DNA of 64,000 bases from an uncultured Bacteroidales bacterium. Lineage in GTDB: Bacteria; Bacteroidota; Bacteroidia; Bacteroidales; VadinHA17. The notes beneath the pieces were generated by a model. That model had not been told where the DNA came from. It searched no databases and saw only the letters and a list, made by a program, of their open reading frames with translations. The position numbers and the translations under genes were made by a program. Below are positions 1 through 41,456 of this stretch, in pieces. Position 1 is the first letter of the stretch; each line of letters starts with the position of its first letter. Location: assembly GCA_963829255.1 (NCBI GenBank), contig CAWHIG010000016.1, positions 10,145 through 74,144 of the forward strand, read 5' to 3'.

Positions 1-223
1 TTCTTTTCATCTTGTAACATAAGATGAATCCGCTGTCATCACTTTCCATCATCAGGTCAAAGATAGCCAGGTCAGGTTTGAATCTTGCAATTACCGATTC
101 TGCCTCAGCCTGACTTTCCACAGCAATAGTTTTGTAACCTTCTTTCTCAAGATTGAAGACTGTCTGAAAAAGGTAATCCGGATCATCATCAGCAACAAGT
201 ATCGTTATATCACTCTTTTTCAT
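1..223 (-). CDS. Response regulator, receiver (REC) domain; only the first 74 codons are present, the gene runs off the window start
   Basis: Own translation from ATG at 223 on the minus strand: MKKSDITILVADDDPDYLFQTVFNLEKEGYKTIAVESQAEAESVIARFKPDLAIFDLMMESDDSGF... It has the acidic DDD pocket and a phospho-acceptor Asp in FDLMM, as in CheY-like receivers. It lies directly downstream of the kinase fusion on the same strand. Confidence 0.8.
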   Translation of the reverse strand, partial: MKKSDITILVADDDPDYLFQTVFNLEKEGYKTIAVESQAEAESVIARFKPDLAIFDLMMESDDSGFILCYKMKR

Positions 224-302
224 CTTTCCACAAATTTCTAAAAATTCTTTAAATCAAACAGTTAATATGATAAATATGATTGTTGTTAATTTAATAACAT
301 TG

Positions 303-420
303 GTGCTGGGTACTGGGTACTGGGTGCTGGTTGCTTAGTCTCTCAGTCTCTCAGTCTCTCAGTCTCTCAGTCTCTCAGTCCCTTAGTCTCCTCTTCTCCT
401 CTTCACCTCTTCACCCCTTC
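303..420. repeat. Three consecutive short tandem arrays: GT(G/A)CTGG x4, (T/C)(T/C)AGTCTC-type 8-mer x7, CTCTTCAC-type 8-mer x3-4
   Basis: Read directly: 303-330 gtgctgg gtactgg gtactgg gtgctgg; 335-390 ttagtctc tcagtctc (x4) tcagtccc ttagtctc; 391-420 ctcttctc ctcttcac ctcttcac cccttc. It sits between the kinase stop and the response-regulator start. Confidence 0.9.
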
Positions 421-2381
421 TATTCTTTCCTCCTTGGCAACACAATTTTAAAACTCGTTCCGGTTGCACCTTTGGCAGGATTATTATTCGAATCTGCAGT
501 GATCTGACCTTTATGCATTTTAACAATGCCATAGGCAGTTGCCAGTCCCAGTCCGGTTCCCTGTCCGATGCTTTTGGTCGTAAAGAATGGTTCGAAAATC
601 TTAGCCCGGTCTTCCTCCTTTATACCCGTACCTGTGTCACTTATAACAATTATTACGTCGCTGAGAGTGTCTTCCATCTTAATATTGACTGTTCCTCCTG
701 CCGGCATTGCATCAAAAGCATTCTTAATAAGATTTGTCAGTACCTGCATCATCTGTTCCTGATCGAGCATAGCTTCAGGATTTGTCGTCCTGTCATCGAT
801 ATTGATTTTAATCTTTGCAGGAATAATGAGGCTTTCAAGGCTGTGTTCTACCAGATCTTTAATACTGACTGTTTGATGGTTAACCTGATTCTTGCGGGCA
901 AAATTCAAAAGACCTGCAACAATTTTCTTGCATCTTCCGGCCTGGTCAACAATCAGTTTAAGATCTTCTCTGACAGGATCTCCGGCTTTCGATTCTTCCA
1001 GGAGAATGTTGCTGTACATTATTACGACTCCGAGAGGATTATTCAGCTCATGTGCTATACCTGCCGAAAGCTGGCCCATATGAGCCAGTTTTTCTGACTG
1101 TTTAAGAGCCTGTTTCATCGATGAGAGCTTCTCGTTTGATAATGCCAGATCCTTTACTGATTTGTGAAGTTTTTCGATAGTATAAGGCAGACACATCTCA
1201 ACTTCAGCCAGTCCCTTTTTGATTGCTATTGCATGCTCCACACAGCTTTCATAACCGCATGCACCACAATCGAGCTGATCCTTCTTTGTCTTCTTACCCA
1301 TCTTAATAAGAATCTCATTCACATCATTCTCATTAAGAGTCTCAATCCCATGATCTTGTGGTTTATGCCTGATCGACAGGTCCAACTCCGCGTATTCGTC
1401 AAACGATTTTTGCCAGCTCTCAGAATCGATATTTTGCATTTTACTGTTGGCATAGGAGCTTACCAGTGACCTTCTGTTGTATTGCTTACCGTTTTTTGAT
1501 AAACCGGGTCCCATAATACATCCCTCACAGCAAAGAAGTTCCATATGCTGGTTCTTAATCAGACCGGCTTCAAATTCCTTTAAGGCTCCCTGAAAGTCAA
1601 TTCTTCCTTCAGCAGCTATAATATTCCCTGTTATCGCATTGTCGCTTATCTTGGCTGTCTGAAGTAATCCACGGGCAACCGGGAAAATAGCACCTCTTCC
1701 GCCAAGAGGCTGATCAAATTCTACCGGGGTACCTGTCTCAGTGGTGATACCTCTCTCAGACAGCATATCTCTTAATTCGGTAAATGTTATAGCCTCATCA
1801 ACTTCACTGCTTTCAGCTTTCTTGGCAATACAGGGTCCGATAAATACAATTCTTGTATCCTTGCCATATTTTTCACGCATCACTCTGCTCATAGCCACCA
1901 TTGGAGAAACAACAGGAGCCAGGTTATCTACAAGAGCAGGGTGATAAAATTTGACATAGTTAACAATTGAGGGGCAATCAGATGAAATATAAAAATTTTT
2001 TCCCTCCGAAACAAGTTTTTTATATCTGTCTGCAACCAGGTCAGCACCGAAAGAAACTTCTGCAACGAATTCAAAGCCCAGCGCCTTAATCATACCTGTA
2101 AGAATATGATGATCAGGGATATCAGAGAATTCTGCGGGAAAACTGGGAGCAACAATAGCTGCAACTTTCGATTCACTTTCGAGAAGTTTTGCTACCCTGT
2201 CGGTTGTATTAAGAAAGACCTTTGCTCCCTGGCTGCACACTTTTGTACAATTGCCGCAGGCTATGCATCGCTCATCAATTACCTCGGCCTGTCCTCCCAC
2301 AATCCGGATAGCTTTGGCAGGACATTCCCTTACGCAGGTATAGCATGTACGGCAAAGCTCCTTTATTGTGTAAACCAACAT
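420..2381 (-). CDS. Putative sensory [FeFe]-hydrogenase-like protein (HydS-type H-cluster domain) fused to a histidine kinase (HisKA + HATPase_c)
   Basis: 653-aa ORF. It has two ferredoxin motifs ([23 protein letters not shown]). The H-cluster domain has variant motifs P1 SSDCPS, P2 GPCIAKKAE and P3 [13 protein letters not shown]. An extra Cx2Cx4Cx16C motif follows ([26 protein letters not shown]), then a coiled coil. Kinase motifs are the H-box [14 protein letters not shown]-box [10 protein letters not shown] and G-boxes DTGTGI and GTGLGL. Confidence 0.85.
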
Positions 2382-2399
2382 GTTAATTCAGTCTTATAA

Positions 2400-4121
2400 T
2401 CATAATAATACATTTCTTTTCTCAAAATGAGTAAAGAATATCTTTTTATCTGCAATATCAGCATTATCTTTTAACAGCTTTTCATATAAGTTGATAAGAG
2501 ACGGCGATTTGCATGGGAGATTAATCGCCTCTGTATCATCAGCCTGGTATACAAGTTTCGACCTGTTCCTGATCTCATCCTTTGAGGGACTGAAAGGTAA
2601 ACCTGCCCCATGTACGCATCCACCCTGACAAGTCATCACTTCAATCAGGTCATACTTTTTACCGGCTGCCATGGAAACTTTTAACTTTGCCAGACCTGTC
2701 AGACCATCGACAACTGCGACGTTAACCCCGTTGTCTCCTACCATAACTGAAATTTCCCTGAATGTTCCTCCCGATCGCAGCTTTTTAAAAATCTGTTTAT
2801 CAGGCTCTTTCTTCATTTTTTGATAATGATATGTCCTGATGACACCTTCAGCCATCCCTCCCGATACTTCAGCCATTATGGCGGCTGAGCTTCTTCCGGA
2901 CAGAGGTTCATCTGCCGGTTCATGTTCAATGTTTGAAGTGTCGATGCCGTATAACCTTATAAGCCTGGCCAGTTCTCTCACTGTCAAAACAGTATCCACA
3001 TCACTTATACCTTTTCTCATCATCCCGTCGCGACGGGCTTCAAATTTCATTGCCATGCAGGGAGTTGCAGATACAGAAAAGATCTCTTCAGGTTTAACCT
3101 GCAGCTGATCCGCTACCAGAGTCTTGATCAGTACGCCGGTGATCTGTTGCGGAGATTTTACGGTCGAGAGTTGAGGAATAAGCGAAGGAATAAATTGCTC
3201 AGCATATTTTACCCATGCAGGACAGGCAGAGATATACAAAGGGGTATCTGACTTATTCTCAATTCTGCCGGAGAGCTGATCTGCGATCTCGGATATACAA
3301 ACATCAGTACCTAATCCTGTTTTAAAGACCTTATCAAAACCAATTTTACGCAGGATGGCATTGAGAATCTTATCAAATTCCCTGGTATATCTCATCCCAA
3401 GTTCCTCGGCAATTCCGTAAACAACCATGGATGAATACTGAATGACCTTTACTATTTCAGGTTTATTAAGATATTCCTGTACTTCTGTAATATTGTGTTT
3501 TTCATGAAGAGCCCCGGTAGGGCAAACAAGTACACACTGGCCGCAATGAATACAGCTTGAAAAGTTAAAGTCCCTGTCCATGGCGGCGCCAACATGTGTT
3601 TCTCTTCCTTTATTAATAAAATCAAGTGATGTTGCAGTAATTACCTCCTCACAGACTCTGACGCATCGCCCACAGAGTATGCATTTGGACAATTCCCGTA
3701 TAATTGCCGGGCTGGATTGGTCGAGACGTGGTTTTATTTTTCTTCCGCGTATGCGCCTCTCTCGTATATTGAGCTCTTCAGCAAGCCTTTGAAGTTCACA
3801 ATTCAGGTTCCGGTCGCAGTACAGGCAATCGTCAGGATGGTTTGACAGCAGCAGTTCGACTATAGTTTTTCTTGCGGTAATTACCCTTGGGGAGTGTGTT
3901 TTAATTTTCATCCATTCCTCAACCGGCTGTGAGCAGGCTGTTACAAGACGGTCACGTCCTTCGACTTCAACAACACACATTCTACAGGCACCTGTAGGTG
4001 TAAACTCCTTCATTCTGCAAAGCGTCGGTATAATAATTCCGTTGCGATTAAGGGCGGAAAGGATTGTTTCACCCTTTTCGGCTTTGATCTTCTTATTATT
4101 TACCTGTAGTGTAAAAAGCAT
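2400..4121 (-). CDS. hydA: [FeFe]-hydrogenase large subunit, HydA-like (NuoEF-coupled architecture) with non-canonical H-cluster motifs
   Basis: 573-aa ORF. The N-terminus is 2Fe-2S ferredoxin-like, followed by HPDDCLYCDRNLNC and two 4Fe-4S motifs (CILCGRCVRVC, CIHCGQCVLVCP). The H-domain motifs are ISACPAW, TPCMAMKFE and EVMTCQGGCVHGAGLP, with a small-subunit-like C-terminal tail. It starts 5 nt after hydB ends and stops 18 nt before the next gene. Confidence 0.85.
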   Translation of the reverse strand: MLFTLQVNNKKIKAEKGETILSALNRNGIIIPTLCRMKEFTPTGACRMCVVEVEGRDRLVTACSQPVEEWMKIKTHSPRVITARKTIVELLLSNHPDDCLYCDRNLNCELQRLAEELNIRERRIRGRKIKPRLDQSSPAIIRELSKCILCGRCVRVCEEVITATSLDFINKGRETHVGAAMDRDFNFSSCIHCGQCVLVCPTGALHEKHNITEVQEYLNKPEIVKVIQYSSMVVYGIAEELGMRYTREFDKILNAILRKIGFDKVFKTGLGTDVCISEIADQLSGRIENKSDTPLYISACPAWVKYAEQFIPSLIPQLSTVKSPQQITGVLIKTLVADQLQVKPEEIFSVSATPCMAMKFEARRDGMMRKGISDVDTVLTVRELARLIRLYGIDTSNIEHEPADEPLSGRSSAAIMAEVSGGMAEGVIRTYHYQKMKKEPDKQIFKKLRSGGTFREISVMVGDNGVNVAVVDGLTGLAKLKVSMAAGKKYDLIEVMTCQGGCVHGAGLPFSPSKDEIRNRSKLVYQADDTEAINLPCKSPSLINLYEKLLKDNADIADKKIFFTHFEKRNVLL

Positions 4122-4126
4122 AAAGG

Positions 4127-6061
4127 TTATTTAACATTTACTGCACTGAACTTACAAATATCAAAACAGATACCACAACCGATACATTTTTCTTCGACAA
4201 TAAAGAAAGGCTGAAGTCGTGTTCCATAAATCGCGTTTACAGGGCATTTTGAAGCACAGGCTGTGCAACCGGTACATTTGTCCACATCAATTGAGAATGT
4301 TCTTAATCCCCTGCAGATATTTGCCCTGCATTTTCTGTCAAAAATATGCTCTTCAAACTCATCTCTGAAATTCTTCAGAGCGCTGATGAATGGGTTTGGA
4401 GCAGTCTGCCCAAGTCCGCAAAGTGAAGTGTCCTTCATTACTGATGCGATTGTTTCGAGTTGCATGACTCCTTTAAACCTTTCAAGAGTTGTACCTGATT
4501 CTTCATTTAAAGGTTTCCTGATCACACTTTCCAGTATCTCGAGCATCCTGCCGGTACCTTCACGGCATGGGATACATTTACCACAACTTTCGTTACGGAT
4601 AAATTCCATATAATATCTTACAAGATCAACCATACAGGTGTTCTCATCGATAATGACGAATCCTCCTGCTCCCATTCCAATCCCTTTTTCTTTAAGATCT
4701 TCGTAATCAACGGCAATATCGAGATTTTCACTTGTTATGAAAGAACCCGAAACGCCTCCGAGCTGTATTGCCTTAAACTCTTTTCCCCCCTTTATTCCAT
4801 CAGCAATATCTTCCAGAACTGTCCTGATAGTTGTGCCCATTTCGATCTCAACGACGCCCGACATACGACCTTTTCCTGCAACTGCAAATACTTTGGTACC
4901 CGGACTGTTTTCGGTTCCCAGCGTCCGGAACCATTCTGGTCCGTTCTGCATTATCAGGGGGACATTCATCAGAGTCTCCACATTGTTTATCACTGTCGGT
5001 TTTCCGAATAGTCCGGCGGTTGTAGGATAAGGAGGTTTTAGTTGAGGCATGCCCCGTTTTCCTTCAAGAGTATTTATCAGAGCAGTCTCTTCACCGCAAA
5101 CGAAAGCTCCGGGTTCAATACGGATCATAATATCAAGATTATAACCGCTTGAGAAAATATTATGTCCGAAAAGCCCGTAATCTCTGGCCATGTCGATTGC
5201 TTTCTGAAGCCTGTTCTTAGCATGGTCAGAACCCGATCTCATAAATATAATGGCATTTGAGGCCCCAATAGCATATGCAGCAATTGCAATACCTTCTATA
5301 AGGCGGTGCGGATCGCTTTCAAGAATGGTTCTGTCAGTAAAAGCTCCGGGATCGCTCTCTTTTGCATTACAGATAAGATACCGTGCATTTGAAGTAGTAT
5401 TCAGAGCATGCTTCCACTTTAGTCCTGTCAGATATCCTCCGCCGCTTCTGCCTCTCAATCCGCTTCTTTCAATTATGTCGCATACCTCTTCAAAAGTATA
5501 ATTTCTGATTGCTTTGATATATGCACGATAGCCTCCACGGGCTATATATTCATTAATGCTTTCAGGATCATAACATCCACAATTTCCAAGTATGATCCTT
5601 TTTTGTTTTTTGAAAAAAGGCAGCTCATCCATAAAAGGTATTCCGGACCACAGTTCAAAACCTTTAGTACCGATCTGACCGGCCAGATCATCCTCATTTA
5701 TATCATTATGAAAAACACCATTCAGAAGAGGCTCCACCTTCTCTTCTGTGATGTTTCTGAAGAACAGTTTATTCTTACCCGGGATCTGAACACATACCAG
5801 TGGTTCAAAAGTTGCAGGTCCGTTACACCCGACATTCACTAACGCTGCAGATGGTTCATTTTCCGTTAAATAGGTCTCGATTGCTGAACAGGTTTTTTCA
5901 GATCCTGCAATAATACTGCTTGTACCGGAAGAGATAAAGATTACCGGCTTGTCAGGCTTTTCCCTTCTCACCTGCTGCAATACCTTTTCTGTTTCCGGCA
6001 ATAATGTATCGGATTCAAACAAAAGTACTTTTTCAATCAGGAATGTTTTTAAATCTTCCAT
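4127..6061 (-). CDS. hydB: NuoF-like flavoprotein subunit of the hydrogenase complex (HydB-like)
   Basis: 644-aa ORF with NuoF/HydB signatures: GLRGRSGGGYLTGLKW, CNAKESDPGAFTDR and ESCGKCIPCREGT. The C-terminus has two 4Fe-4S motifs, CTGCTACASKCP and CIGCGICFDIC. Confidence 0.85.
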   Translation of the reverse strand: MEDLKTFLIEKVLLFESDTLLPETEKVLQQVRREKPDKPVIFISSGTSSIIAGSEKTCSAIETYLTENEPSAALVNVGCNGPATFEPLVCVQIPGKNKLFFRNITEEKVEPLLNGVFHNDINEDDLAGQIGTKGFELWSGIPFMDELPFFKKQKRIILGNCGCYDPESINEYIARGGYRAYIKAIRNYTFEEVCDIIERSGLRGRSGGGYLTGLKWKHALNTTSNARYLICNAKESDPGAFTDRTILESDPHRLIEGIAIAAYAIGASNAIIFMRSGSDHAKNRLQKAIDMARDYGLFGHNIFSSGYNLDIMIRIEPGAFVCGEETALINTLEGKRGMPQLKPPYPTTAGLFGKPTVINNVETLMNVPLIMQNGPEWFRTLGTENSPGTKVFAVAGKGRMSGVVEIEMGTTIRTVLEDIADGIKGGKEFKAIQLGGVSGSFITSENLDIAVDYEDLKEKGIGMGAGGFVIIDENTCMVDLVRYYMEFIRNESCGKCIPCREGTGRMLEILESVIRKPLNEESGTTLERFKGVMQLETIASVMKDTSLCGLGQTAPNPFISALKNFRDEFEEHIFDRKCRANICRGLRTFSIDVDKCTGCTACASKCPVNAIYGTRLQPFFIVEEKCIGCGICFDICKFSAVNVK

Positions 6062-6079
6062 CGGGGATTATTACAGGAG

Positions 6080-6574
6080 TTAGTCGTTTTCAATAATGTA
6101 CTTTAATTTTTTTATCAGTTCAGGAAGTTGCTCCGGTTTCACATGAGTATGATATTCGCCGTTCACATTGATAACCGGGCCATTACAACAGCCCCCCATG
6201 CATGAGACGATCTCATAGCTGAAATTGCCATCCCGTGTTGTCAGTCCTGGTAATACTCCAGTCTCTTCCCTTATTTTATTAATGATTGATTGTGATCCGT
6301 TAAGGAAGCATGAGGTGCCATTGCAGATCCTGATCTGAATTTTTCCTGAGGGAATGAACCTGAACCTGTCATAAAATGTAGCCAGGCCATAGATCTTTGT
6401 AGTGCTCAGACCTAAAAAGCTCCCTGTTTTAACAATAGCTTCCTCAGAGAGATAACCCAGATTGTCCTGTATTTCCTGAAGCAAAGGAATAAGATCTTCC
6501 CTTTTACCCTGTTTGTATTTTTTAAGAATTATTTCAAGATCAGTCGCCATCCAGATTATATTAAAGAATTTCAA
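6080..6574 (-). CDS. hydC: NuoE-like thioredoxin-fold [2Fe-2S] subunit (HydC-like)
   Basis: 164-aa ORF with a Cx4C...Cx3C pattern (ICNGTSCFLNG ... SCMGGCCNGP). An alternative start is the Met at 6550 (MATDLEIILKKY). Confidence 0.85.
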   Translation of the reverse strand: MKFFNIIWMATDLEIILKKYKQGKREDLIPLLQEIQDNLGYLSEEAIVKTGSFLGLSTTKIYGLATFYDRFRFIPSGKIQIRICNGTSCFLNGSQSIINKIREETGVLPGLTTRDGNFSYEIVSCMGGCCNGPVINVNGEYHTHVKPEQLPELIKKLKYIIEND

Positions 6575-6589
6575 TACAAAGATAATTGA

Positions 6590-6634
6590 TTTTATTGTTA
6601 ATAAATAAACATTGTTATTTTATTAACAATAAAA
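6590..6634. promoter_or_regulatory. Perfect 16-bp inverted repeat carrying three ATTGTTA/TAACAAT half-sites, immediately upstream of hydC; candidate repressor operator with Rex-like geometry
   Basis: TTTTATTGTTAATAAA (6590-6605) is the exact reverse complement of TTTATTAACAATAAAA (6619-6634). An inner ATTGTTA (6611-6617) and TAACAAT (6624-6630) are spaced by 6 nt. This is the same layout as TTGTGA-N6-TCACAA. Confidence 0.4.
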
Positions 6635-6855
6635 TAACTAACTATATTTATTATACTTTTTTAAATATATTATTGAATATTAACGTTTTACAAATTTTAA
6701 TAAAATCAGGTCGAGCATAAGTTACATCATCTGAAATGTAAGTCGGACCGGTTTTACATATTAATCATGTGAATCTAAGAAGAAAAGAGGTAGATAACAG
6801 CTCGGAAATAATTATTACTTTTGTTGCTGTTGTTTATTTATGAACAGAAAGAAAA

Positions 6856-7110
6856 ATGGCTCAAAGAATTGAGATGCAAATCTGTCTTGGAAGCTCCTGT
6901 TTTTCAAGAGGTAACAAAGACGTCGTAATGTTCATAAGAGAATATCTCAGGAAAAATCATCTTGATGACAAAGTTGTTTTTAAAGGTGCCCGATGTATGG
7001 GTCTTTGCAGTAATGGACCAAATCTGAGTATAAACGGCGTAACCCTTGAAGGGGTTACTCTTTCAAAAATAGAGAGTATACTTGAAAAAGAATTTGCCGG
7101 AATAGTATAA
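6856..7110 (+). CDS. Small thioredoxin-like [2Fe-2S] ferredoxin (NuoE-fold)
   Basis: 84-aa ORF with ICLGSSCFSRGN ... ARCMGLCSNGP, the same Cx4C/Cx3C spacing as hydC. It is the first gene of the plus-strand unit. Confidence 0.8.
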   Translation: MAQRIEMQICLGSSCFSRGNKDVVMFIREYLRKNHLDDKVVFKGARCMGLCSNGPNLSINGVTLEGVTLSKIESILEKEFAGIV

Positions 7111-7112
7111 GA

Positions 7113-7235
7113 AAAGTTTGAAGTGAGCTAAAGTTTGGAGTGACTAAAGTTGAAATGAAAGAATGAATAATGATAAAGTTGAATAATACTATAATACTTT
7201 AGCACTTTAGCACTCTAGGCACTTTAGGCACTAAT
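7113..7235. repeat. Inverted arrays of a CTAAAGT(G)/(C)ACTTTAG unit between the 2Fe-2S gene and the PAS sensor gene; potential long imperfect hairpin
   Basis: Left arm: aaagtttgaagtgagctaaagtttggagtgactaaagt. Right arm: actttagcactttagcactctaggcactttaggcact. The units are reverse complements of each other. Confidence 0.6.
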
Positions 7236-7245
7236 ATAAGTTAAT

Positions 7246-9132
7246 ATGGCAAACAGAAAGCCTGTTCTTTACATAAATGATGAAAAGTGCAGAAATTCAT
7301 ATTCCTGCGTACGAGTCTGCCCTGTAAACGCAATTGAGGTTAAACCCCAAAAGGCGCATCCGTTCATTCTTCCCGACAGATGCATCGGATGTGGTTTATG
7401 CTATGTTTCATGCACACCACACGCAATAGAATTCCGCGATTCAAAAGAATCAGTTAAGAAACTGTTATCATCCGGAAGAAAAACCGCAGCTCTTATTGAG
7501 CCAAGCATTGCATCGGAATTTGATGATATAACAGATTACCGGAAGTTCGTTGCTATGATAAGGTCGCTGGGTTTTGACTATGTTCACGAAGATTCGTTCG
7601 GAGTCGATCTGATAGCCGCTGCCTATGCAAAACTTTTCTTAAAAGCTGAAGGTAAATATCTGATCACGGCAAACTGCCCTTCAATTGTCAAACTTATTGA
7701 GAAGTTTCACCCCGAACTGGTTCCTAACCTTGCACCACTTGTCTCGCCTATTATAGCTACTGCAATGGTTGTAAAAAAGCTATACGGACCTGAGGTAGCT
7801 ACAGTTCAGATTGGCCCATGTATTGATGCAAAAGATGAATCGCTTATCTATGATTCAGATAAGCTTGTTGACGGAGTACTGACTTTTGTGGAACTGAGAG
7901 AGCTTTTTGATGAATTCAAGATCCAGGAAAGACTGGTAAAGATGTCCGATTTTGATCCGCCTCATGGAAATTGGGGGGCTCTCTACCCTCTGCCAGCAGG
8001 GATTATTCAGGCAGGAGGTATAAAGCGCGATATGGTTTCGAGCAGGGTAATTACAGCTTCCGGAAAAGAAGAAATCCTTGAAGCAATTAATGATTTCGAC
8101 AAATATATTGACACGATACAACACCATTTTAACTTATTCTTTTGCCATGGATGCCTGCTCGGTCCGGGAATGCAACATCATAATGAACGATTCAGGAGAA
8201 GAGCACTGGTGCGGAAGTATGCTGAAAAGAGAGTGGGCAAACTTGATAAAGCTCTCTGGCAAAAAAATATGGAAAAATGGTCAAAGCTGGATTTTTCAAG
8301 AGGTTTTACACCCGATGATCAGAGAATACCTGAACCGCCGGAAGAAGCTATTTTGGAGGTGCTTAAAATCATCGGCAAAAACAGCCCCGATGAGGAGATC
8401 AACTGTGGTGCCTGTGGCTATCTCTCTTGTCGTGAATTTGCTTCAACAGTTGCAAAAGGACTTGCGGTTCCGGAAATGTGCCATACCTTCAATCTTCGTA
8501 ATAAACAGGAATATATTGAGACTCTCCGGCAAACAAACAGGAAACTGGCTGAAACAAAAAAAGCCTTAAAAGAATCAGAAGAACTGGCACGCAGGGAAAA
8601 GGAGATTGCTCAAAGCACTTCAGATATGATGAACAACATGCTCGAAAAGCTTCCTTCCGGAGTGGTAATTGTTGATAATAATCTAAAAATACTTCATTCA
8701 AATCAAAGCTTTATTAACATAATCGGAGAGGATGCAAAAGCCATATCAGATGTAATTCCCGGTCTTGCCGGTGCAGATATCAAGACCCTCATCCCCTTCA
8801 ACATTTATAATATGTTCACATTTGTAATAAAGGAAGATGAACCTGTTGTAAGCAAAGATGTTCATTTTGAAGATAAAATGCTGAATATTTCCATCTTTCC
8901 GATAAGAAAGAACAAGATCTGCGGAGCAATAATCCGCGATCTGTATTCACCTGAAGTACAGGGGGAAGAGGTAACAAACAGAGTCAGTGAGGTGATTGAT
9001 AAAAACCTTGAAATGGTTCAAAAGATAGGATTCCTGCTTGGAGAAGGTGCATCTGAAACCGAGCAGATGCTGAACTCAATAATTGAATCGTACAAAACAA
9101 AAAAAGTGAATCTGAAAAACAACCTCAAATAA
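7246..9132 (+). CDS. Putative sensory [FeFe]-hydrogenase-like protein (HydS-type) with C-terminal PAS-like domain
   Basis: 628-aa ORF. Ferredoxin motifs are CRNSYSCVRVCP (3 Cys) and CIGCGLCYVSC. H-domain variants are P1 TANCPS, P2 GPCIDAKDE and P3 NLFFCHGCLLGPG. It has CGACGYLSCREFASTVAKGLAVPEMC, a coiled coil, then a PAS-like segment (LPSGVVIVDNNLKILHSNQSFINIIG...). Confidence 0.85.
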   Translation: MANRKPVLYINDEKCRNSYSCVRVCPVNAIEVKPQKAHPFILPDRCIGCGLCYVSCTPHAIEFRDSKESVKKLLSSGRKTAALIEPSIASEFDDITDYRKFVAMIRSLGFDYVHEDSFGVDLIAAAYAKLFLKAEGKYLITANCPSIVKLIEKFHPELVPNLAPLVSPIIATAMVVKKLYGPEVATVQIGPCIDAKDESLIYDSDKLVDGVLTFVELRELFDEFKIQERLVKMSDFDPPHGNWGALYPLPAGIIQAGGIKRDMVSSRVITASGKEEILEAINDFDKYIDTIQHHFNLFFCHGCLLGPGMQHHNERFRRRALVRKYAEKRVGKLDKALWQKNMEKWSKLDFSRGFTPDDQRIPEPPEEAILEVLKIIGKNSPDEEINCGACGYLSCREFASTVAKGLAVPEMCHTFNLRNKQEYIETLRQTNRKLAETKKALKESEELARREKEIAQSTSDMMNNMLEKLPSGVVIVDNNLKILHSNQSFINIIGEDAKAISDVIPGLAGADIKTLIPFNIYNMFTFVIKEDEPVVSKDVHFEDKMLNISIFPIRKNKICGAIIRDLYSPEVQGEEVTNRVSEVIDKNLEMVQKIGFLLGEGASETEQMLNSIIESYKTKKVNLKNNLK

Positions 9133-9138
9133 TCTTAA

Positions 9139-10284
9139 GTGAACAGGAACTTTTTTATAGAGGTTAACAGCCAGCAAAGGAACTTCGACGGGGAGAGGAT
9201 CAGCGGCGATGTATTTCTGTACAGGTATATTAAAGAAGAAGACAGGGTTGTTGCCGTATTATCCGATGGTATGGGACATGGGGTTAAGGCAAATATTCTT
9301 GCAACCCTTACGGCAACAATGGCCATAAATTTTACACGCGAACATAAGGAGGTTGACCGTATCGCTGAGATTATAATGAATACACTTCCGGTATGCAGCG
9401 AAAGAAAGATCAGTTATTCAACTTTTACAATTATAGATATTGAAAACAGCGGCAGGACAACAATACTGGAATATGATAATCCATCCTGTATTGTTTTAAG
9501 AGGGAGCCAGATATTTGATCCTTCATGGAAAAAAGTAGTGCTCGAGAAAGGTAAAAACTCAGGTAAGGTTCTGAAAACATGCACATTTTTGCCTGAGAAA
9601 GAAGACAGAATTATCTTCTGCTCTGATGGTGTTTCACAAAGCGGAATGGGAAGTGAACCATTTCCTTTTGGCTGGGAAAGGGACAGCATTGCCACTTATG
9701 CTGCATCGCTTGTTACAAGTGAAGCATCAATTTCTGCCAATATGCTTGCCGGAAAGATTGTTACGATGGCTCATAAAAACGACAACTATAAAGCCCGTGA
9801 TGATATAAGCTGTGCAACAATCTATTTCCGTGAACCCCGTAAATTAATTATCTGTACAGGTCCCCCATACGAGAAGGAAAAGGACAAAGATCTGGCCGCA
9901 AAAGTAGTTGCATATAAAGGAAAAGTGATCCTCTGCGGAGGTACAACAGCAGATATAGTTGCCCGGGAATTAAACAGGACTATTATTGATGAACTTATAT
10001 TCGAAGATCCGGAACTGCCGCCGGAAAGTTTCCTGGAAGGCATTGATCTGGTGACCGAAGGAATCCTGACACTTCAAAAGGTCAACGAAATATTGAAAAC
10101 TTATAATAACAGTGTAAAACTCGGAAAAGGACCGGCAGATAAGATCGTAAGGCTGATTATGGAGAGCGATGAGATTCACTTCGTTATCGGTACCAGGATC
10201 AATATCGCACATCAGGATCCTAATCTGCCTGTTGAACTTGAGATCAGGACGAACTGTAGTAAAGCGCATTGCGCGTCTGCTTGA
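9139..10284 (+). CDS. PP2C/SpoIIE-family serine phosphatase with an extra C-terminal domain
   Basis: 381-aa ORF with a GTG start 6 nt after the sensor stop. SpoIIE-type motifs are ISGDVFLY, VLSDGMGHGVKANILA and IFCSDGV. The 3' end may continue in the +1 frame to 10324 (see findings). Confidence 0.8.
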   Translation: MNRNFFIEVNSQQRNFDGERISGDVFLYRYIKEEDRVVAVLSDGMGHGVKANILATLTATMAINFTREHKEVDRIAEIIMNTLPVCSERKISYSTFTIIDIENSGRTTILEYDNPSCIVLRGSQIFDPSWKKVVLEKGKNSGKVLKTCTFLPEKEDRIIFCSDGVSQSGMGSEPFPFGWERDSIATYAASLVTSEASISANMLAGKIVTMAHKNDNYKARDDISCATIYFREPRKLIICTGPPYEKEKDKDLAAKVVAYKGKVILCGGTTADIVARELNRTIIDELIFEDPELPPESFLEGIDLVTEGILTLQKVNEILKTYNNSVKLGKGPADKIVRLIMESDEIHFVIGTRINIAHQDPNLPVELEIRTNCSKAHCASA

Positions 10285-15396: not shown

Positions 15397-18300
15397 TTAT
15401 ATCCTCACACCCAGAATTGTAACATCGTCAATCTGATCTGCAGAGCCTTTCCATGTTTCGAACTCACTCTCCAGTATTCTATGTTGTTCAGCCATAGGCC
15501 TGTAGTAGATCTCCGTAATAAGTTTCTTCAGGTTATATTTCATGTATTTGGACATATATGGTCCGCCAAACTGATCAGCGAATCCATCTGTAAATATGTA
15601 GATTGTATCTCCTTTTTGTACATTGATCTCGTAATTAGTGAAAGTATCCTTTTCACCATAGTAAATACCTATTGGCATCCTGTCGCCTCTGTATTCCTTG
15701 AACTCTCCTCCCTGGAAAATGAAGAGCGTATTATAAGCTCCGGAAAATTCAAGTATTTTCCTGTCCTTATGCAGGATGCAAAAGGCTACATCCATACCAT
15801 CATTGGCTTCTCCCTCTTTGCCGGTCTGGTGCATAGACGTTTTAATCTTTTCACGCAACAGATTTAATACAGTATTTGCTTTAAGGTTTTCATTATTGGT
15901 GATTACCTCATCTAATGTTGATATCCCAAGCGTACTCATAAAGGCACCCGGAACGCCATGACCGGTACAATCGGCAACCGTAAAGTAAATATGTTTTTCA
16001 TCTTCACCGATCCAGTAGAAATCACCGCTTACAATATCACGGGGTTTAAATATTATAAAATATTCCGAAAATGAATCCCTGAAATGTTCAGACTCCGGAA
16101 GCATCGCCATCTGTATCCTGCTTGCATATTCAATACTTGAAGTAATCTCCTGTTTTTGAGCCTCAATTTCGGTAGTGCGCTCTTTTACCCTGGTCTCCAA
16201 TATCCGTTTGTCTTTTTTAAGCTGCCTTTCCCTGAATCTGATAACTCCTATTATTACAACCAGTATGGCACACACAACAACTATGTAAAAAAAGGTCGTT
16301 TGTGTAAAAGGCGCTTCAATAGCAAATCCAACCCTTTTGGGTTCACTTATGTTCCCCCATATATCTTTCGCCCTTACCTGAAGTATATATTTACCAGGCT
16401 TTATCATCAGGGTTATCGTATTGTCGTATGACCACTTTGACCATTCCGTCATAACCTTGTCAACAATATATTGATATTGAGTCGAATTCTTCTTAAGATA
16501 TCCAGGAGCTACCAGATCAAAATATACAGTATTATCTCCGCTTCCGAATACTATATCGGAAAAGCTGAAATTAATCCCTTTTGCATTGGAGATACTTCTG
16601 ATGAACAGGTTTATGTCTGTTTTTACGGAAGGAATTTTGTTGCGGACAATTCTGTAAAGCAGATTGTCTCCGCTGATAACCCAGATATTGTCTTTATCGG
16701 TATATATTGAATTAAGATTATCAAAAATTTTAAGAAGTGCCTTATCATTATAGTCAATTCTGCCTGCAGAACTGATATTGATCCATTCGTCTTCGGTCTT
16801 AACCCATGGAATTTCCTGCTGCGATAACACATATTTTATCCTTGCACTGTTATTTGAAAATTCCTTTCTGTATTCTTTAAAGGAATCAAGATTACTGTCA
16901 TAATAACTGACACCTGATAATGTAAAAGCAAATATCGTATCGTTAACATATTCAACTATATACCTCTGTGGCAAATTACTAATACTATACACTTTGGTAT
17001 TCCCGGAAAAGATTCCGTTTTCAAGACTTATTCTGAACAGGATATCATCGCTCCCTGCCCAGATAGTATTCTCATCCGTTGATACTATTGAATAGAGTGG
17101 ATGTGTAAATGTTTTATCGGGATAAACTGCCACCCAACCATTCTTATTATCATGTGTGATATAAAAGTAACCGTCTGTCGTGGCCACATAGTACTTGTTA
17201 TCCCTTGATTTTGAACTAATGTTATTAATATACCTGTTACTTACAACAGCTTTGGCAACGTGGCCTGAAATAATATAAAGGCCTCTGTTTGTTGAAGCAA
17301 GAATATCATTTCCGGCAGAGATCATCTGCTTACATTTTTCATTCAGTCCATCAATTTTGGTATATACATAATTAATTGATTTGAGTCTGCCGGCTACCTT
17401 TTTGAAATATTTTGGTTCCGGTAACCTGATTGCCGGAGGAGTAATTATTTGCACTGGTTGTTCCTGAACAACCGGTGCCACCGGCTTCTTTCCAAATATT
17501 CTGGATAAAATACCTTTCCTTGTTTTCTGTGGCTCCGGAGTTACCTGTTGAACTGGCTTGTTCTGGATTACCGGCTGGATTGGCTTTTCAACTACTTCTT
17601 CATTTTTTACAAGTACCTCTACCTGAGCATATTTTTTAACTTCTTTCAGATAAAACACTCCCTCACTCGTTGCTACATATAATTCATTATTATGCCAGAG
17701 TGAGGCAATGAGGTTGCCCTTCAGTCCCGGATAAATGCTGAAATTGCCGACCGGTAATCGCAAATCTGCACGCGTAAGCCCATACTGATGGGAAAACCAC
17801 AGACCATAATTGTTATCACATCCCCAGTGCAAAAATTTCATCATCGGGTAATCCATTTATATAATTGATCGCATATTTTAGTTTCCCGTTCTGCTTTTCA
17901 ACAACCAGAGCTCCTCCATCAAGAGTTGAAAATGCATATAGACTGTCAGATATTAATAACCCGTCCGACAGAATATTTTGCCGGAGATAACCTTCATCCT
18001 TTATAGGGTAATCATAGAATTTTATCCCGTCAAAAAGAGAAAGTTCTCCATTGCTTTTTCCTAAAAGTACAAGATTCTTGTTATAGGGAAGACTGAAAAG
18101 GATCTCCTCATTTTCAAGCATATAACCAGTAACAATAGGGAACAAGGTATCACTTTCAAGCCTGTAGAGTCCTTTTGACAGAGACATTTATGAAGGTATT
18201 TTTAGGAGTAATAAACATCCCCGTGAAAGGTCTGTTTCCTTTCGGTCTGAGTCGTAATTCAAACTTTTCTGACTTTAAATTATGCCTGCTGATACTTTGT

Positions 18301-38923: not shown

Positions 38924-41296
38924 TTATACTTCTTCATGCTCAGTCCTCCTGATTATCTCATTCTGCAGATCCTCTCCAAGATCGTTGAAATAATCACTGT
39001 AACCTGCCACACGAACAATAAGGTCCCTGTATCGCTCCGGATGTAATTGCGCATCCTTCAGAGTTTGCACATTAACTACATTAAACTGAATATGATGACC
39101 ATCCAGACTGAAATAGCTGCGGATCAACGCCGTAAGCTTTTCATAACTCTCCTCATCTTCAAAAAAGGATGGAGAAAACTTTTGATTTAACAGGGTGCCT
39201 CCTGTTCTGAAGATGGTCAATCTTTGAGGCTGATTTAATGACAGATGTCGGGCCTTCATGATCAACACCCTGAAAAGGTGAAATACCTTCTGAAAGAGGC
39301 AGATAAGCATTCCGGCCATCAGCAGTGGCACCGATAACACTTCCAAAATAGACATGAGAAGTTGTAGGCAGCATATTTATACGGTGGACTCCCCCTCTCG
39401 AATTTGGCTGGCCATTAACCGCATCATAATAGATCTCAAAGACTGTAACTGCCTGTTGATCTGCATAATCATCATCATTGCCGAACTTGGGTGTTTCATA
39501 TACTATCTGGTACTGAATCTGTTCGTACCCTTTGAAATCTGCATCAAGAGCTTTGTTAAACTCTTCCCAGCTAAATGTTTTGTTATCATAAATATTATAA
39601 CGGATTGATGTAAGCATGTCGGTGATACTTCCCAGACCAACACCCTGAATATATGAAGTATTGTAACGTGGCTCCGCCACTATTGTAATCCCTGCCGTTG
39701 GAAATACAATCTTCTACCAGTAAAGATAAAAATGGTACTGGCAACCAATCGGCAAACGTCTTTTCAATAACATTGTTACCCTTTATCTTAATCGCAGCGA
39801 GGTAATTTACCTGCAGTTTAAATGCTTCAATGACATCTTCAAAAGTCTTGTAGTCGTTAGAGTTACCAGTCTTCAGCCCGACAAGTTGATTAGTCCTCCT
39901 GTCATATCCGTTGTTAAGAGTCAGCTCCAGAACTTTCGGAAGATTGAAGTACCCTGTCAGCCAGTATGCCTCCGTACCGAAAGCTCCGGTTTCAACACAG
40001 CCCGATGCACCACCGTTCCGGGCATCAATTATATTTTTCCCCTGCCTGAGCAGTTCCTCGATTATTGCATCTGTATTGAAGCATGAAGGTTGGCCGAATC
40101 CGGTTTTTATTATATCAAGTGCCTTATGAATAAATCTGTCAGGACTGCCTTTGGAGATCTGTATCATCGAACTGGGCTGAAGTATCCGCATCTCCTTTAT
40201 GACATCAAGAAGAATATAGGACATCTCATTAACTGCATCGGTACCATCAGGTTTCACTCCACCAAGATTAATAAGACAAAAGTCGGTGTAGGTATTGCTT
40301 TCACTTGCTGTTACACCCATTTTTGGTGGTGAGGGATGATTATTGAATTTTACCCAGAAACAGCCAAGAAGATCATCGAGTTCACACTCGGAAAGCGTAC
40401 CGGACTGCTGTTTCCCTTTTATAAACCGGATAAAGATGCTGATCGAGTCTGCCCGGATTAAAAGAGTCCCAGGGATTTAGTTCAGTTATAACCCCCAGAT
40501 GTATGAACCAGTAATGCTGAAGCATTTCATGAACAGTCTCGGGAGCATAGGCAGGAACTTTGCGACATACGGCTGCCATCTTTATCAACTCCTCTTTTCT
40601 TTCCGAATCTTTCTCCTCTGCGGTAAGCTTATCCAGCTCATCGGCATGACGATTCGCGTACATTATTATTGCATTGCACGTAATATTCATTGCTCTGAGC
40701 TCCTCCATCTTTTCGTATGCCTGGCTGTCAGTAAAAAAATTAAGAGCCTCAATAGCCTCGCTTATCTCCTCTTTTACAGCCAGAAACCCTGTTTTAAACA
40801 TTCTGTAACCCAATACTGTATGTCCGGGGGCGCGCTGTTCCTGGAATTCAGTAAACACGCCTGCATTATAGGCATTCAGCCATTCAGTTGTCATCAGTGA
40901 CATTATCCTGTCGCGGTTGCTGTTCCCTTTCCAGAAGGGAATAATTTCCTTTTCATAAATGTTCTTCACCTCATCATCTACTCTGAAGAAGACTTTTTCC
41001 CTTGAATCAAGGATCGCAAGATCCTTCAGGGAATGAAGGCTTATTTCAGGATAGGTTGGAGTTTCCTTTGGCGCCGGCCCTCTCTCCCCTACTATCAGTT
41101 CGCCTTCGTTGATGCAAATTTTCTTATTCTTCAGAAGATATTCAAAAGCCTTTGCCCTTTTAACAGGGGCTGACAATTCACCTGCTTCATCACTCTTATA
41201 AAACTCTGTGATAAGCAATGCTCTCTCTGCGCTTATCTTTTCGACTGCATTCAGGCTCTGATCTCTTAATTTTTTAACTCTTTCTGATAAAATCAT
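38924..41296 (-). pseudogene. Glycyl-radical enzyme (PFL superfamily, GCVE eliminase-type active site), split by three frame shifts
   Basis: Four consecutive ORFs (40382..41395, 39595..40320, 39159..39680, 38924..39355) together give about 790 aa. The catalytic loop is GGASGCVETGA and the glycyl-radical motif is VRVAGYSDYF. Breaks are near 40417-40420 (T4), about 39670 and about 39205. The likely start is the Met at 41296. Confidence 0.85.
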
Positions 41297-41328
41297 AACT
41301 ATACAATTACTGATTTCAAATATTATGT

Positions 41329-41456
41329 TTTCTTCCTTTGTGTTCCTTTGTGACATCCTTGTGTTCCTTCGTGGTAAGAAAAAATTTAACCACAAAGGAC
41401 ACGAAGGGATTCACAAAGGAATTATTATAAGAACGTTGCATGCAACGTCCCTACAC
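41329..41456. repeat. Composite intergenic element: CACAAAG-type palindrome plus ACGTTGCATGCAACGT palindrome
   Basis: cttcctttgtgttcctttgtga ... tttaaccacaaaggacacgaaggg, then gaacgttgcatgcaacgtccctac (41431-41454). Confidence 0.8.

Follow-up and report, generated by a model that had tools for sequence, protein, structure and literature searches.

Why should three [FeFe]-hydrogenase H-domains encoded in a single locus carry three different residues at the position that holds the proton-relay cysteine in prototypical enzymes? The locus lies at the start of a stretch of DNA of 64,000 nt from an uncultured Bacteroidales bacterium of the VadinHA17 lineage (GenBank assembly GCA_963829255.1, contig CAWHIG010000016.1, forward-strand positions 10,145 to 74,144), which we call the window and from whose first letter all positions are counted. 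It encodes a HydA-like subunit (here HydA*) with its HydB and HydC partners, a histidine kinase fused to an H-domain (the kinase fusion) and an H-domain protein with a PAS-like C-terminus (the PAS-type protein); at the position of Cys299 of the hydrogenase CpI these carry Ala, Asp and Asn respectively. An earlier interpretation made from the letters only (the sequence-only reading) proposed that the three domains could differ systematically in H2 reactivity and so form a graded set of sensors or enzymes. Comparison with solved structures and with orthologous loci leads us to propose instead that the three residues are probably lineage-fixed marks of three protein classes, and not steps of one scale.

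Three residues at the Cys299 position

A Pfam Fe_hyd_lg_C H-domain was found in all three open reading frames (ORFs; E = 1.5e-42, 6.1e-65 and 7.2e-36). With HMMER, the ISACP motif of the 573-aa HydA* aligns on TSCCP of T. kivui HydA1, T. maritima HydA and CpI, and SSDCP of the kinase fusion and TANCP of the 628-aa PAS-type protein fall on TSCCP of solved structures in the same way. The CpI sequence was then rebuilt from the HMMER alignments and aligned jointly with the three proteins in MAFFT, giving a numbering that matches the landmarks of the literature (C299, C300, C355, C499, C503, E279, E282, R286, S319, M353, K358 and M497). In this joint alignment C299 corresponds to Ala299 in HydA*, Asp135 in the kinase fusion and Asn143 in the PAS-type protein, while C300, C355, C499 and C503 are retained in all three. 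The motif assignment of the sequence-only reading therefore survives alignment with CpI and the HydABC structures, including its statement that the neighbouring cluster-ligating Cys (C300) is always kept, and its P2 (TPC/GPC/GPC) and P3 (MTCQGGC/LCCEGC/FFCHGC) motifs were identical when read again. An independent line of support came from phmmer, in which the top CpI match was the crystal variant C299A (PDB 6GLY) for the Ala protein and the variant C299D (6GLZ) for the Asp protein.

To place these residues in an evolutionary frame we used two depths of sampling. A scan of one genome per species yielded 309 HydA* relatives, the best 80 of which (76-96% identity; nearly all from metagenome-assembled genomes (MAGs) of Bacteroidales/Bacteroidota, with one contig labelled Chloroflexota) were taken for the comparison of loci, providing 80 HydA*, 70 kinase and 61 PAS-type orthologues, and 58 loci with enough flanking sequence to follow the downstream genes. 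A direct homologue search gave only relatives at least 85% identical, also when a profile of four sequences was used, and the wider diversity comes from a 50%-cluster search together with look-ups of four contigs (L081, L083, L084 and L085) carrying HydA* relatives 42-45% identical to that of the window. Among the orthologous loci the residue at position 299 is Asp in 70/70 kinase fusions, Asn in 61/61 PAS-type proteins and Ala in 73/80 HydA*.

The biochemistry that the sequence-only reading invoked is borne out for group-A enzymes, in which C299D keeps 30-80% of H2-release activity, C299A and C299S keep <1%, and Asp is the sole tolerated substitution. To this extent the proposal of a graded set is partly supported, by its motifs and by the Asp/Ala contrast; what does not stand is a single series set by residue 299. 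Each domain sits in a protein of a different class: HydA* is of the M3 type and stands beside HydB and HydC, the second protein is fused to a histidine kinase, and the PAS-type protein is accompanied by a phosphatase. E279, E282 and S319 are gone from both regulators, and S319 is the only one of these left in HydA*. With none of these three residues left in the regulators and one in HydA*, residue 299 alone cannot grade proton transfer. The lysine equivalent to CpI K358 is lacking from HydA* and the PAS-type protein, and in both regulators replacement of the Cys is an already known trait of sensory [FeFe] hydrogenases, one of which, TmHydS, was less active when the Cys was restored. The pocket, moreover, is best kept in the 'sensor' kinase and least in the 'hydA-like' protein, which is the opposite of what their labels imply.

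The kinase fusion retains a near-canonical pocket

The kinase fusion runs from an N-terminal 2x[4Fe-4S] domain through the H-domain and a Cx2Cx4Cx16C motif to HisKA and HATPase_c (Pfam), so that the features by which group C sensory hydrogenases are recognized, namely 2x[4Fe-4S], a four-Cys H-domain, Cx2Cx4Cx16C, a signalling output and adjacency to an A3-type operon, are all present. Its pocket keeps A230, P231, S232, K358, K359, E361 and F417 (CpI numbering), differing from CpI by M353G, M497L and Q325M and by the absence of E279, E282 and S319. Among orthologues the pocket shows no variation at any of its 14 non-cysteine positions, and A78, P79, S80, K187, K188, E190, F233, G182 and L283 are all invariant pocket residues; overall, 38% of sites are invariant. 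The ratio of non-synonymous to synonymous substitution rates (dN/dS) of the H-domain is 0.058. The conservation reaches deep: Asp also occurs in three diverged operons with a kinase H-domain identity of about 55% (56% across the window and the three operons), and SSDCP, GPCxAKK, ELLCCxGCIMGPG and APSF of the kinase are unchanged across the four operons, whose HydB proteins are just 49% identical.

K358 (K228 in CrHydA1) anchors the distal cyanide of the H-cluster, and in prototypical enzymes variants at this lysine do not assemble the cofactor. Because its pocket is near-canonical and invariant and the CN-anchoring lysine is kept, we judge the kinase fusion to be the likely best candidate for a true H-cluster protein.

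HydA* is a remodelled HydA-like subunit

HydA* has the M3 architecture ([2Fe-2S], NuoG-type [4Fe-4S], 2x[4Fe-4S] and H-domain), shares its operon with a NuoF-like HydB and a NuoE-like HydC, and finds its best PDB matches in HydA of bifurcating HydABC complexes (E = 1.7e-123). Relative to CpI it carries the changes A230S, P231S, S232M, E279I, E282Q, C299A, M353T, K358M, F417A and G418E, and it keeps the four cluster Cys, S319, R286, Q325, K359, E361 and M497. Two of the motifs depart from the group-A pattern and the third does so in part: P1 is ISACPAW and not TSCCPxW; P2 is TPCMAMKFE as against MPCxxKxxE, E361 being kept; and P3 is EVMTCQGGCVHGAGLP as against ExMxCxxGCxxGGGQP, with the cysteines and M497 kept and GGGQP turned into GAGLP. 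Along the proton path, S319 and R286 remain beside E279I and E282Q, and the positions of E279 and R286 vary among orthologues. None of the curated [FeFe]-hydrogenase models of NCBIfam accepts HydA* at its cut-off (NF040763, 570.5 < 765; NF040762, 415.9 < 900; TIGR02512, 345.8 < 405.95). Its relatives carry the JGI label 'iron-only hydrogenase group A', and NCBI names them generically as '[Fe-Fe] hydrogenase large subunit C-terminal domain-containing' or '2Fe-2S cluster-binding' proteins.

Parts of this pocket drift. Across the 80 orthologues position 299 is A73/V3/S2/T1/I1, the position of S232 is M/L/A/V/F and that of E279 is I/L/V/T/M, with C300, C355, C499 and C503 invariant throughout; across the four deep operons position 299 reads A/L/F/S and position 358 M/G/R/A. 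Many of the M3-type HydA-like proteins recovered by the 50%-cluster search likewise lack K358 and have S, N, H, F, L, E, D or A in place of C299, and the named proteins of these clusters come from Bacteroidales MAGs.

The distribution of conservation along the protein is also reversed with respect to canonical enzymes. Pairwise identity among HydA* orthologues is 92% in the N-terminal Fe-S domain and 73% in the H-domain, and dN/dS is 0.014 and 0.069 respectively, an approximately fivefold difference; the N-terminal Fe-S wire is the most conserved element of the operon. When proteins are compared two by two, the H-domain is less conserved than the N-terminus in 100% of the HydA* orthologue pairs and, for 30 non-canonical representatives without C299 and K358, in 99%, the reverse holding in just 1%. 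In a control set of 51 cluster representatives of canonical M3-type HydA, by contrast, 94% of pairs have the more conserved H-domain. At greater depth, across the window and L081/L084/L085, the HydA* N-terminus is 57% and the H-domain 32% identical.

From its sequence HydA* cannot be a prototypical fast hydrogenase, and we give roughly equal weight to a slow, non-canonical H-cluster site and to a cofactor-poor electron-transfer subunit. If HydA* is indeed slow or inactive, estimates of fermentative H2 production in fens, soils, sediments and digesters that rest on gene counts would be too high. These are the habitats (with lake sediments among them) of the genomes that carry it, which number at least about 300 species-level Bacteroidales genomes.

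Several other accounts of HydA* were considered and set aside. The H-domain is not a decaying pseudodomain, since a dN/dS of 0.069 is strongly purifying; what sets it apart from the kinase H-domain is the identity of the variable sites, together with its deep divergence. An alternative proton path through E418 was rejected, as F417A/G418E is invariant in the clade of the window but position 418 is N/G/N in deeper HydA* relatives. Membership of groups E, F or G of the [FeFe] hydrogenases was ruled out, these being ultraminimal or NiFe-hybrid archaeal enzymes.

In the course of these comparisons we also saw that many otherwise canonical A3-type HydA proteins (e.g. P0123, P0140, P0148 and A. woodii HydA1) read TSCSPGW, with Ser at the position of Cys300 and the preceding Cys kept, a state that has been noted in the literature. 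Another protein from outside the window, P0122, with a predicted length of 4122 aa, strings together canonical H-domain units in tandem, at least seven in number. Six of these recur every 444 aa and share the same MPCTVKKTE/EIMMCEGGCMNGAGQ motifs; the seventh lies out of register and has diverged (MPCTVKKVE/EIMMCNGGCSGGPGQ). P0122 would be a giant poly-hydrogenase, unless it is a product of mis-assembly.

The PAS-type protein and its phosphatase module

In the PAS-type protein a 2x[4Fe-4S] domain, the H-domain and a Cx2Cx4Cx16C motif are followed by a coiled-coil and a PAS-like C-terminus. Here too 2x[4Fe-4S], the four-Cys H-domain and Cx2Cx4Cx16C of group C are found, and the conservation of [2Fe]-subsite residues is not. 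Relative to CpI, K358 is replaced by Ala, with F417Y, M353G and M497F in addition, and P231, S232 and E361 are kept. Among orthologues the position of K358 is A, N or S, with the Asn at 299 fixed and most of the pocket invariant. A homologue 48% identical to that of the window, found upstream of hydA* on contig L083 (1-1251, minus strand), has lost all four cluster Cys (SNDP, SPL, FY-KEF) and retains the Asn together with the start of the C-terminal motif (Cx2Cx4C), so that it represents a fully degenerate H-domain regulator. Cofactor binding by the PAS-type protein is uncertain because the CN-anchoring lysine is missing, and, with a Cys-less sister lineage in addition, H2 sensing is the claim about the three domains that we hold least securely.

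The gene for a second SpoIIE/PP2C phosphatase (819 aa, 15397-17856, minus strand), with a long N-terminus without a Pfam match, lies 5 kb past the sensor module.

Organization of the locus and its orthologues

The features of the locus are collected in Table 1. Four close-set minus-strand genes (420-6574; intergenic gaps of 5-18 nt) have the order hydC-hydB-hydA*-[H-domain kinase], the kinase gene starting 18 nt past the hydA* stop. The divergent plus-strand module consists of the genes for an 84-aa [2Fe-2S] protein, the PAS-type protein and a PP2C phosphatase, the last two separated by 6 nt. The true start of HydC is probably the ATG at 6550, as orthologue alignments start at residues 3-9.

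Table 1. Features of the hydrogenase locus (positions in the window)
Feature	Position	Strand	Basis
Response-regulator receiver gene, 5' part (MKKSDITILVADDD...), truncated by the window start	1..223	-	Translation; L003 orthologue matches Pfam Response_reg
Rex-box-like near-palindrome TTGTTAATTTAATAACAt, upstream of response-regulator gene	283..300		Same half-sites as hydC site
H-domain histidine kinase, 653 aa, putative H2 sensor of 'BfuT'/HydS-HK type	420..2381	-	Pfam, PDB alignment
HisKA + HATPase_c kinase module, residues 421-653	423..1121	-	Pfam; PDB matches to ZraS and CckA kinases
Cx2Cx4Cx16C accessory [4Fe-4S] motif of kinase fusion, Pfam FeS PF04060	1185..1277	-	Pfam and read from sequence
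Kinase-fusion H-domain, residues 61-300	1482..2201	-	Alignment
Asp135 codon, kinase fusion	1977..1979	-	Alignment and translation
HydA*, 573 aa, M3-type HydA-like subunit	2400..4121	-	Pfam, alignment to solved structures
Met358 codon of HydA*, at CN-anchoring Lys position (CpI K358/CrHydA1 K228)	3048..3050	-	Alignment; M78/N1/G1 in orthologues
Ala299 codon, HydA*	3225..3227	-	Alignment and translation
HydB, NuoF-like FMN/[4Fe-4S] subunit with C-terminal 2x[4Fe-4S] domain	4127..6061	-	Pfam, NCBIfam
HydC, NuoE-like thioredoxin-type [2Fe-2S] subunit	6080..6574	-	Pfam, NCBIfam
18-bp palindrome TTGTTATTTTATTAACAA, TTGTTA-N6-TAACAA, in divergent promoter region upstream of hydC	6612..6629		Promoter reading and locus comparison
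84-aa NuoE-type [2Fe-2S] protein (Cx4C...Cx3C), first gene of divergent module	6856..7110	+	Pfam, NCBIfam; adjoins PAS-type gene in orthologous loci
PAS-type H-domain protein, 628 aa, HydS/HfsB-like	7246..9132	+	Pfam, PDB alignment, NCBIfam
Asn143 codon, PAS-type protein	7672..7674	+	Alignment and translation
Cx2Cx4Cx16C motif of PAS-type protein (PF04060)	8398..8481	+	Pfam; in 120/120 close homologues
PAS-like region, residues 461-566	8626..8943	+	Six Pfam PAS families, sub-threshold
SpoIIE/PP2C-type serine phosphatase	9139..10284	+	Pfam; kept with PAS-type gene in orthologous loci

This seven-gene arrangement recurs in species-level Bacteroidales MAGs, some loci lacking the PAS/phosphatase module. 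Beyond the kinase gene, genes for a receiver, a receiver-kinase hybrid, Rex and RibF follow in 58/58 loci and HydG in 38/58. In locus L003 (13865-20695) the order is receiver, hybrid kinase, Rex, RibF, HydG, a TM1266/CPF_0552-family protein and HydE. Here HydG, at 486 bits, clears the TIGR03955 cut-off of 312 and HydE, at 350 bits, the TIGR03956 cut-off of 255, and Rex passes the NCBIfam cut-offs. No HydF was found within 21.7 kb of L003, and no maturase gene lies within the window itself. Because the island carries its own maturases in orthologous loci, at least one of the three H-domains should use the cofactor, and the H-cluster is very probably made in this lineage. The more diverged contigs L081, L084 and L085 preserve hydC-hydB-hydA*-[H-domain kinase]-receiver-hybrid kinase-Rex, and L083 ends directly after hydA*, with a small [2Fe-2S] gene and the PAS-type gene upstream. 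In every operon examined, down to ~40% HydA* identity, the kinase gene directly follows hydA*, with a 4-nt overlap in L085.

The pattern TTGT[TG]A-N6-T[AC]ACAA lies ~50-60 bp upstream of hydC in 60 of 75 loci, and these sites account for 60 of its 66 matches in 1.44 Mb of locus sequence. The classical Rex box TTGTGAA-N4-TTCACAA is not enriched in the window (7 matches, 7.2 expected). With a rex gene following the operon in orthologues, we regard the 18-bp palindrome upstream of hydC as a probable Rex operator.

Two repeat features were noted within the locus. Three neighbouring microsatellite arrays at 302-432, (GGTGCTG)x5, (AGTCTCTC)x7 and (TCTCCTCT)x6, lie around the stop codon of the kinase gene and in the spacer between it and the response-regulator gene, where slipped-strand variation is possible. 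The spacer before the PAS-type gene (7107-7245) contains repeated 'AAAGTT(T)GA' and 'CACTTTAG(C/G)' units (…cactttagcactctaggcactttaggcact…).

Two observations concern the remainder of the window. At 39595-41395 (minus strand) a pyruvate formate-lyase-like gene is seemingly split into ORFs of 241 aa and 337 aa, of which the 337-aa piece matches positions 2-294 of a 647-position model, possibly reflecting a frameshift, a pseudogene or a sequencing error. At 56416-60673 lies a BcrAD/BadFG-type ATPase gene pair; the product of one member, 1074 aa long, also includes a fused CoA-enzyme activase domain (DUF2229). Activators of 2-hydroxyacyl-CoA dehydratase or benzoyl-CoA reductase-like enzymes are typically of this kind.

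A proposed function for the island and its alternatives

For all three domains, cofactor binding, H2 reactivity and signalling are what we infer from sequence. The explanation we favour, with reasonable though far from full confidence, is that the region is one hydrogen-metabolism island, comprising a HydABC (Bfu)-type operon, an H-domain kinase and a divergent second regulatory module. The hydC-hydB-hydA*-kinase genes would be co-transcribed, with the second module on the other side of the Rex-type operator. The kinase fusion would be a genuine H2 sensor, with Asp135 hydrogen-bonded to the azadithiolate amine and acting as acceptor of the proton that is released when H2 is split heterolytically; because there is no proton path past the Asp, its site would equilibrate with H2 stoichiometrically and without turnover. 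HisKA would sense the resulting redox change by way of the Cx2Cx4Cx16C cluster and the coiled-coil, and would hand the signal on to the receiver and the hybrid kinase. HydA*BC would be an NADH/ferredoxin-linked complex under Rex control, the H-domain of which no longer serves as a prototypical catalytic site, and the PAS-type protein a second regulator, probably signalling via the PP2C phosphatase, whose Asn could hydrogen-bond but could not relay a proton. An island of this kind, joining Rex (NADH/NAD+), two putative H2 sensors (one acting by a His-Asp phosphorelay, the other through a Ser/Thr phosphatase), ribF and maturases, would be a tractable model of H2 control in a fermenter, and the H2-to-phosphorylation read-out of the kinase fusion should be open to direct assay.

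A number of observations weigh against this explanation. The kinase fusion has no recognizable proton path past its Asp (its residues there are Y120, L123 and A155). The HydA* H-domain is under strongly purifying selection (dN/dS ~0.07), close to that of the kinase H-domain; it keeps S319, Q325, K359 and E361, with Thr/Ser at position 353 as in group D and CpII, and both TmHydS and TamHydS are active without C299. For these reasons a functional, non-canonical H-cluster site in HydA* is a real possibility, and a catalytic HydA* would explain the presence of maturase genes next to the operon no less well than sensors would. The rex, ribF, hydG and hydE genes sit in orthologous loci, beyond the window start, which cuts the receiver gene. 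The PAS assignment is soft: residues 461-566 are matched by six Pfam families of PAS type, with E = 0.003-0.04 and every score under the gathering threshold, no PAS match was recorded among 120 close homologues, and a single-sequence AlphaFold2 model has a confidence (pLDDT) of 42.7, unusable for fold assignment.

How do other explanations fare? That all three domains assemble a normal H-cluster, with Ala, Asp and Asn tuning proton transfer to give one enzyme and two sensors of graded sensitivity, appears unlikely. Such a set would sit well with four cluster Cys invariant in all three proteins, with hydG and hydE beside the operon in orthologues, with purifying selection on all three H-domains and with the sharp difference between Asp and Ala in group-A enzymes; Birrell and co-workers, moreover, speculate that pocket residues set the sensitivity range of HydS. 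It has to contend, however, with an onward proton path missing from the two regulators and reduced to S319 in HydA*, with the absence of K358 from two of the three domains, with a sister PAS-type protein that still has the Asn after losing its cluster Cys, with the failure of Ala-to-Cys to raise the activity of TmHydS, and with the drift of HydA* position 299 (A/V/S/T/I, deeper A/L/F/S), which is not how a tuning residue behaves. At the opposite extreme, the three domains might perform no H2 chemistry at all and be hydrogenase-derived Fe-S redox sensors or wires that keep only the [4Fe-4S] part of the site. The loss of K358 from two of three domains, the Cys-less PAS-type relative and the finding that H-cluster motifs are hardly detectable in some group C1 proteins (Zheng and Huang, 2024) would all fit, as would Rex control, through which the island already reads NADH/NAD+; but HydG and HydE pass equivalog cut-offs beside the operon in orthologous loci and none of the residues known to hold the [2Fe] subsite is missing from the kinase fusion, and we consider this account very improbable. 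An artefact, in which the HydA* residues stem from a pseudogene, mis-assembly or alignment error, is suggested by a single fact, that the source is probably a MAG, and hardly deserves credence given an intact ORF, the same motifs in 80 independent species-level loci and 120 protein clusters, a dN/dS of 0.07 and four independent, concurring alignments.

Two related ideas would assign the H2 chemistry differently. The locus might encode one machine, in which the kinase-fused domain is the sole H2-activating module and HydA*BC its electron sink, or in which HydA*BC supplies an NADH/ferredoxin input to the kinase; as a second possibility, HydA* might be active without Cys299, Glu279 and Lys358. 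Both strike us as rather improbable. The former would mean that a hydrogenase complex has been turned into a signalling complex, and the latter would conflict with current rules of H-cluster assembly and proton transfer. In the explicit form of a role swap, for which we see a slim chance, HydA* is a cofactor-poor scaffold and wire (compare HylA, below) on which the co-translated kinase fusion docks as the sole H2-activating module, with H2 turned over by the 'sensor' or with NADH/ferredoxin redox input to the kinase. The invariable position of the kinase gene after hydA*, including the overlap in L085, the conserved near-canonical pocket of the kinase fusion and not of HydA*, the N-terminal wire of HydA* as the most conserved part of the operon (dN/dS 0.014), the precedent of HylA as a HydA homologue without L1-L3 serving another catalytic partner, and the treatment of the sensor as a 'T subunit' of BfuABC (Zheng and Huang, 2024) all point this way. 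Yet the kinase fusion has no proton path past its Asp, the HydA* H-domain is still constrained, and the same gene order occurs with canonical BfuA in Hydrogenedentota and Caldithrix, so that adjacency does not demand a swap.

Comparison with known systems

Sensory [FeFe] hydrogenases of groups C and D lack C299, which has been described as 'exchanged mostly into alanine', adjoin A3 operons, and have the Cx2Cx4Cx16C motif. Position 299 in the sensory sequences of HydDB is Cys in 17%, Ala in ~43%, Pro in ~10% and Ser in ~10%, and the authors conclude that it may not matter for HydS. The group C HydS proteins (TmHydS and R. albus HydS) share with the proteins of the window 2x[4Fe-4S], a four-Cys H-domain, Cx2Cx4Cx16C, a signalling domain and adjacency to HydABC, and in both systems C299, M353 and M497 are replaced. 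Gly at 353 is common to TmHydS and both regulators described here, whereas TmHydS has Ala at 299 as against Asp and Asn here, both of them minority states; its Ala-to-Cys variant gained no activity, which was in fact lowered. Differences from group C HydS also include the sub-threshold PAS domain and the fusion of one of the two sensors to a histidine kinase, and the CN-anchoring lysine that is said to be conserved in sensory enzymes is absent from the PAS-type protein of the window. The pairing of PAS and serine phosphatase in R. albus HydS and Thermoanaerobacterium HfsB/HfsC resembles the PAS-type module. HfsD was considered as an analogue of the kinase fusion and ruled out, being a ferredoxin-linked hydrogenase.

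For HydA* there are two partial parallels. The group D protein TamHydS (M2e) has, like HydA*, Ala at 299 and Ser/Thr at 353 and lacks the canonical path, but it has no NuoG-type N-terminus; it still holds an H-cluster and has a slow turnover by a different route (E252, E289, S249 and D265), the residues of which could not be mapped onto HydA*. HylA of HylABC-FdhF2 in Clostridium acidurici is a HydA homologue without the L1-L3 motifs that stands beside NuoF/NuoE-like subunits, as HydA* does, and is presumed to be an electron-transfer subunit. It differs in that HydA* keeps the four cluster Cys and its island has putative H2 sensors and maturases. No formate dehydrogenase gene accompanies HydA*: none of the six ORFs of at least 600 aa in the window outside the locus encodes a molybdopterin enzyme, and none was found in L081, L084 or L085. 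Some surveys of HydA homologues filter on conservation of L1-L3 and would have thrown out the HydA* family. In a recent study the catalytic subunit of the B. thetaiotaomicron 'group A3' M3 enzyme had 0.22% of CrHydA1 activity after semisynthetic maturation (Welsh et al., 2025), a low value that may link this enzyme to the HydA* family.

The closest known gene arrangement is that of the BfuABC clusters (sub-type V), in which a 'T' gene encodes a sensor, either of the PAS or of the kinase type (Zheng and Huang, mSystems 2024). In Perlabentimonas, Tenuifilum and Williamwhitmania one bfuT lies upstream of bfuC and a second downstream of bfuA, an arrangement whose meaning was called unclear. The order bfuT(PAS)-bfuC-bfuB-bfuA-bfuT(kinase) is the same as here, so the double-sensor arrangement had already been described, in three Bacteroidota isolates. 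The BfuA motifs are generally conserved (xTSCxPxW, MPCxAKK, GxGQ), in contrast to ISACP, TPCMAMK and GAGLP in HydA*, and the paper is silent on residue 299 of the T subunit, on Rex and on maturase linkage. In the literature we found no description of a deeply fixed natural C299D in a kinase-linked sensor, of the remodelled HydA* family (no C299, E279 or K358; reversed domain conservation), or of the linkage of these genes with Rex, ribF and maturases.

The same side chains as in HydA* and the kinase fusion have been engineered into CpI and CrHydA1 as C299A and C299D. In CpI the carboxylate of C299D hydrogen-bonds the azadithiolate amine, and E279A/Q leaves <1% activity. The rest of the path (water, E279, S319, E282 and R286) is intact in the engineered proteins and is not intact here. 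The kinase fusion may thus offer a natural, deeply conserved C299D site without the remaining proton path, on which the role of the first proton acceptor in a sensor, as opposed to a catalyst, can be tested.

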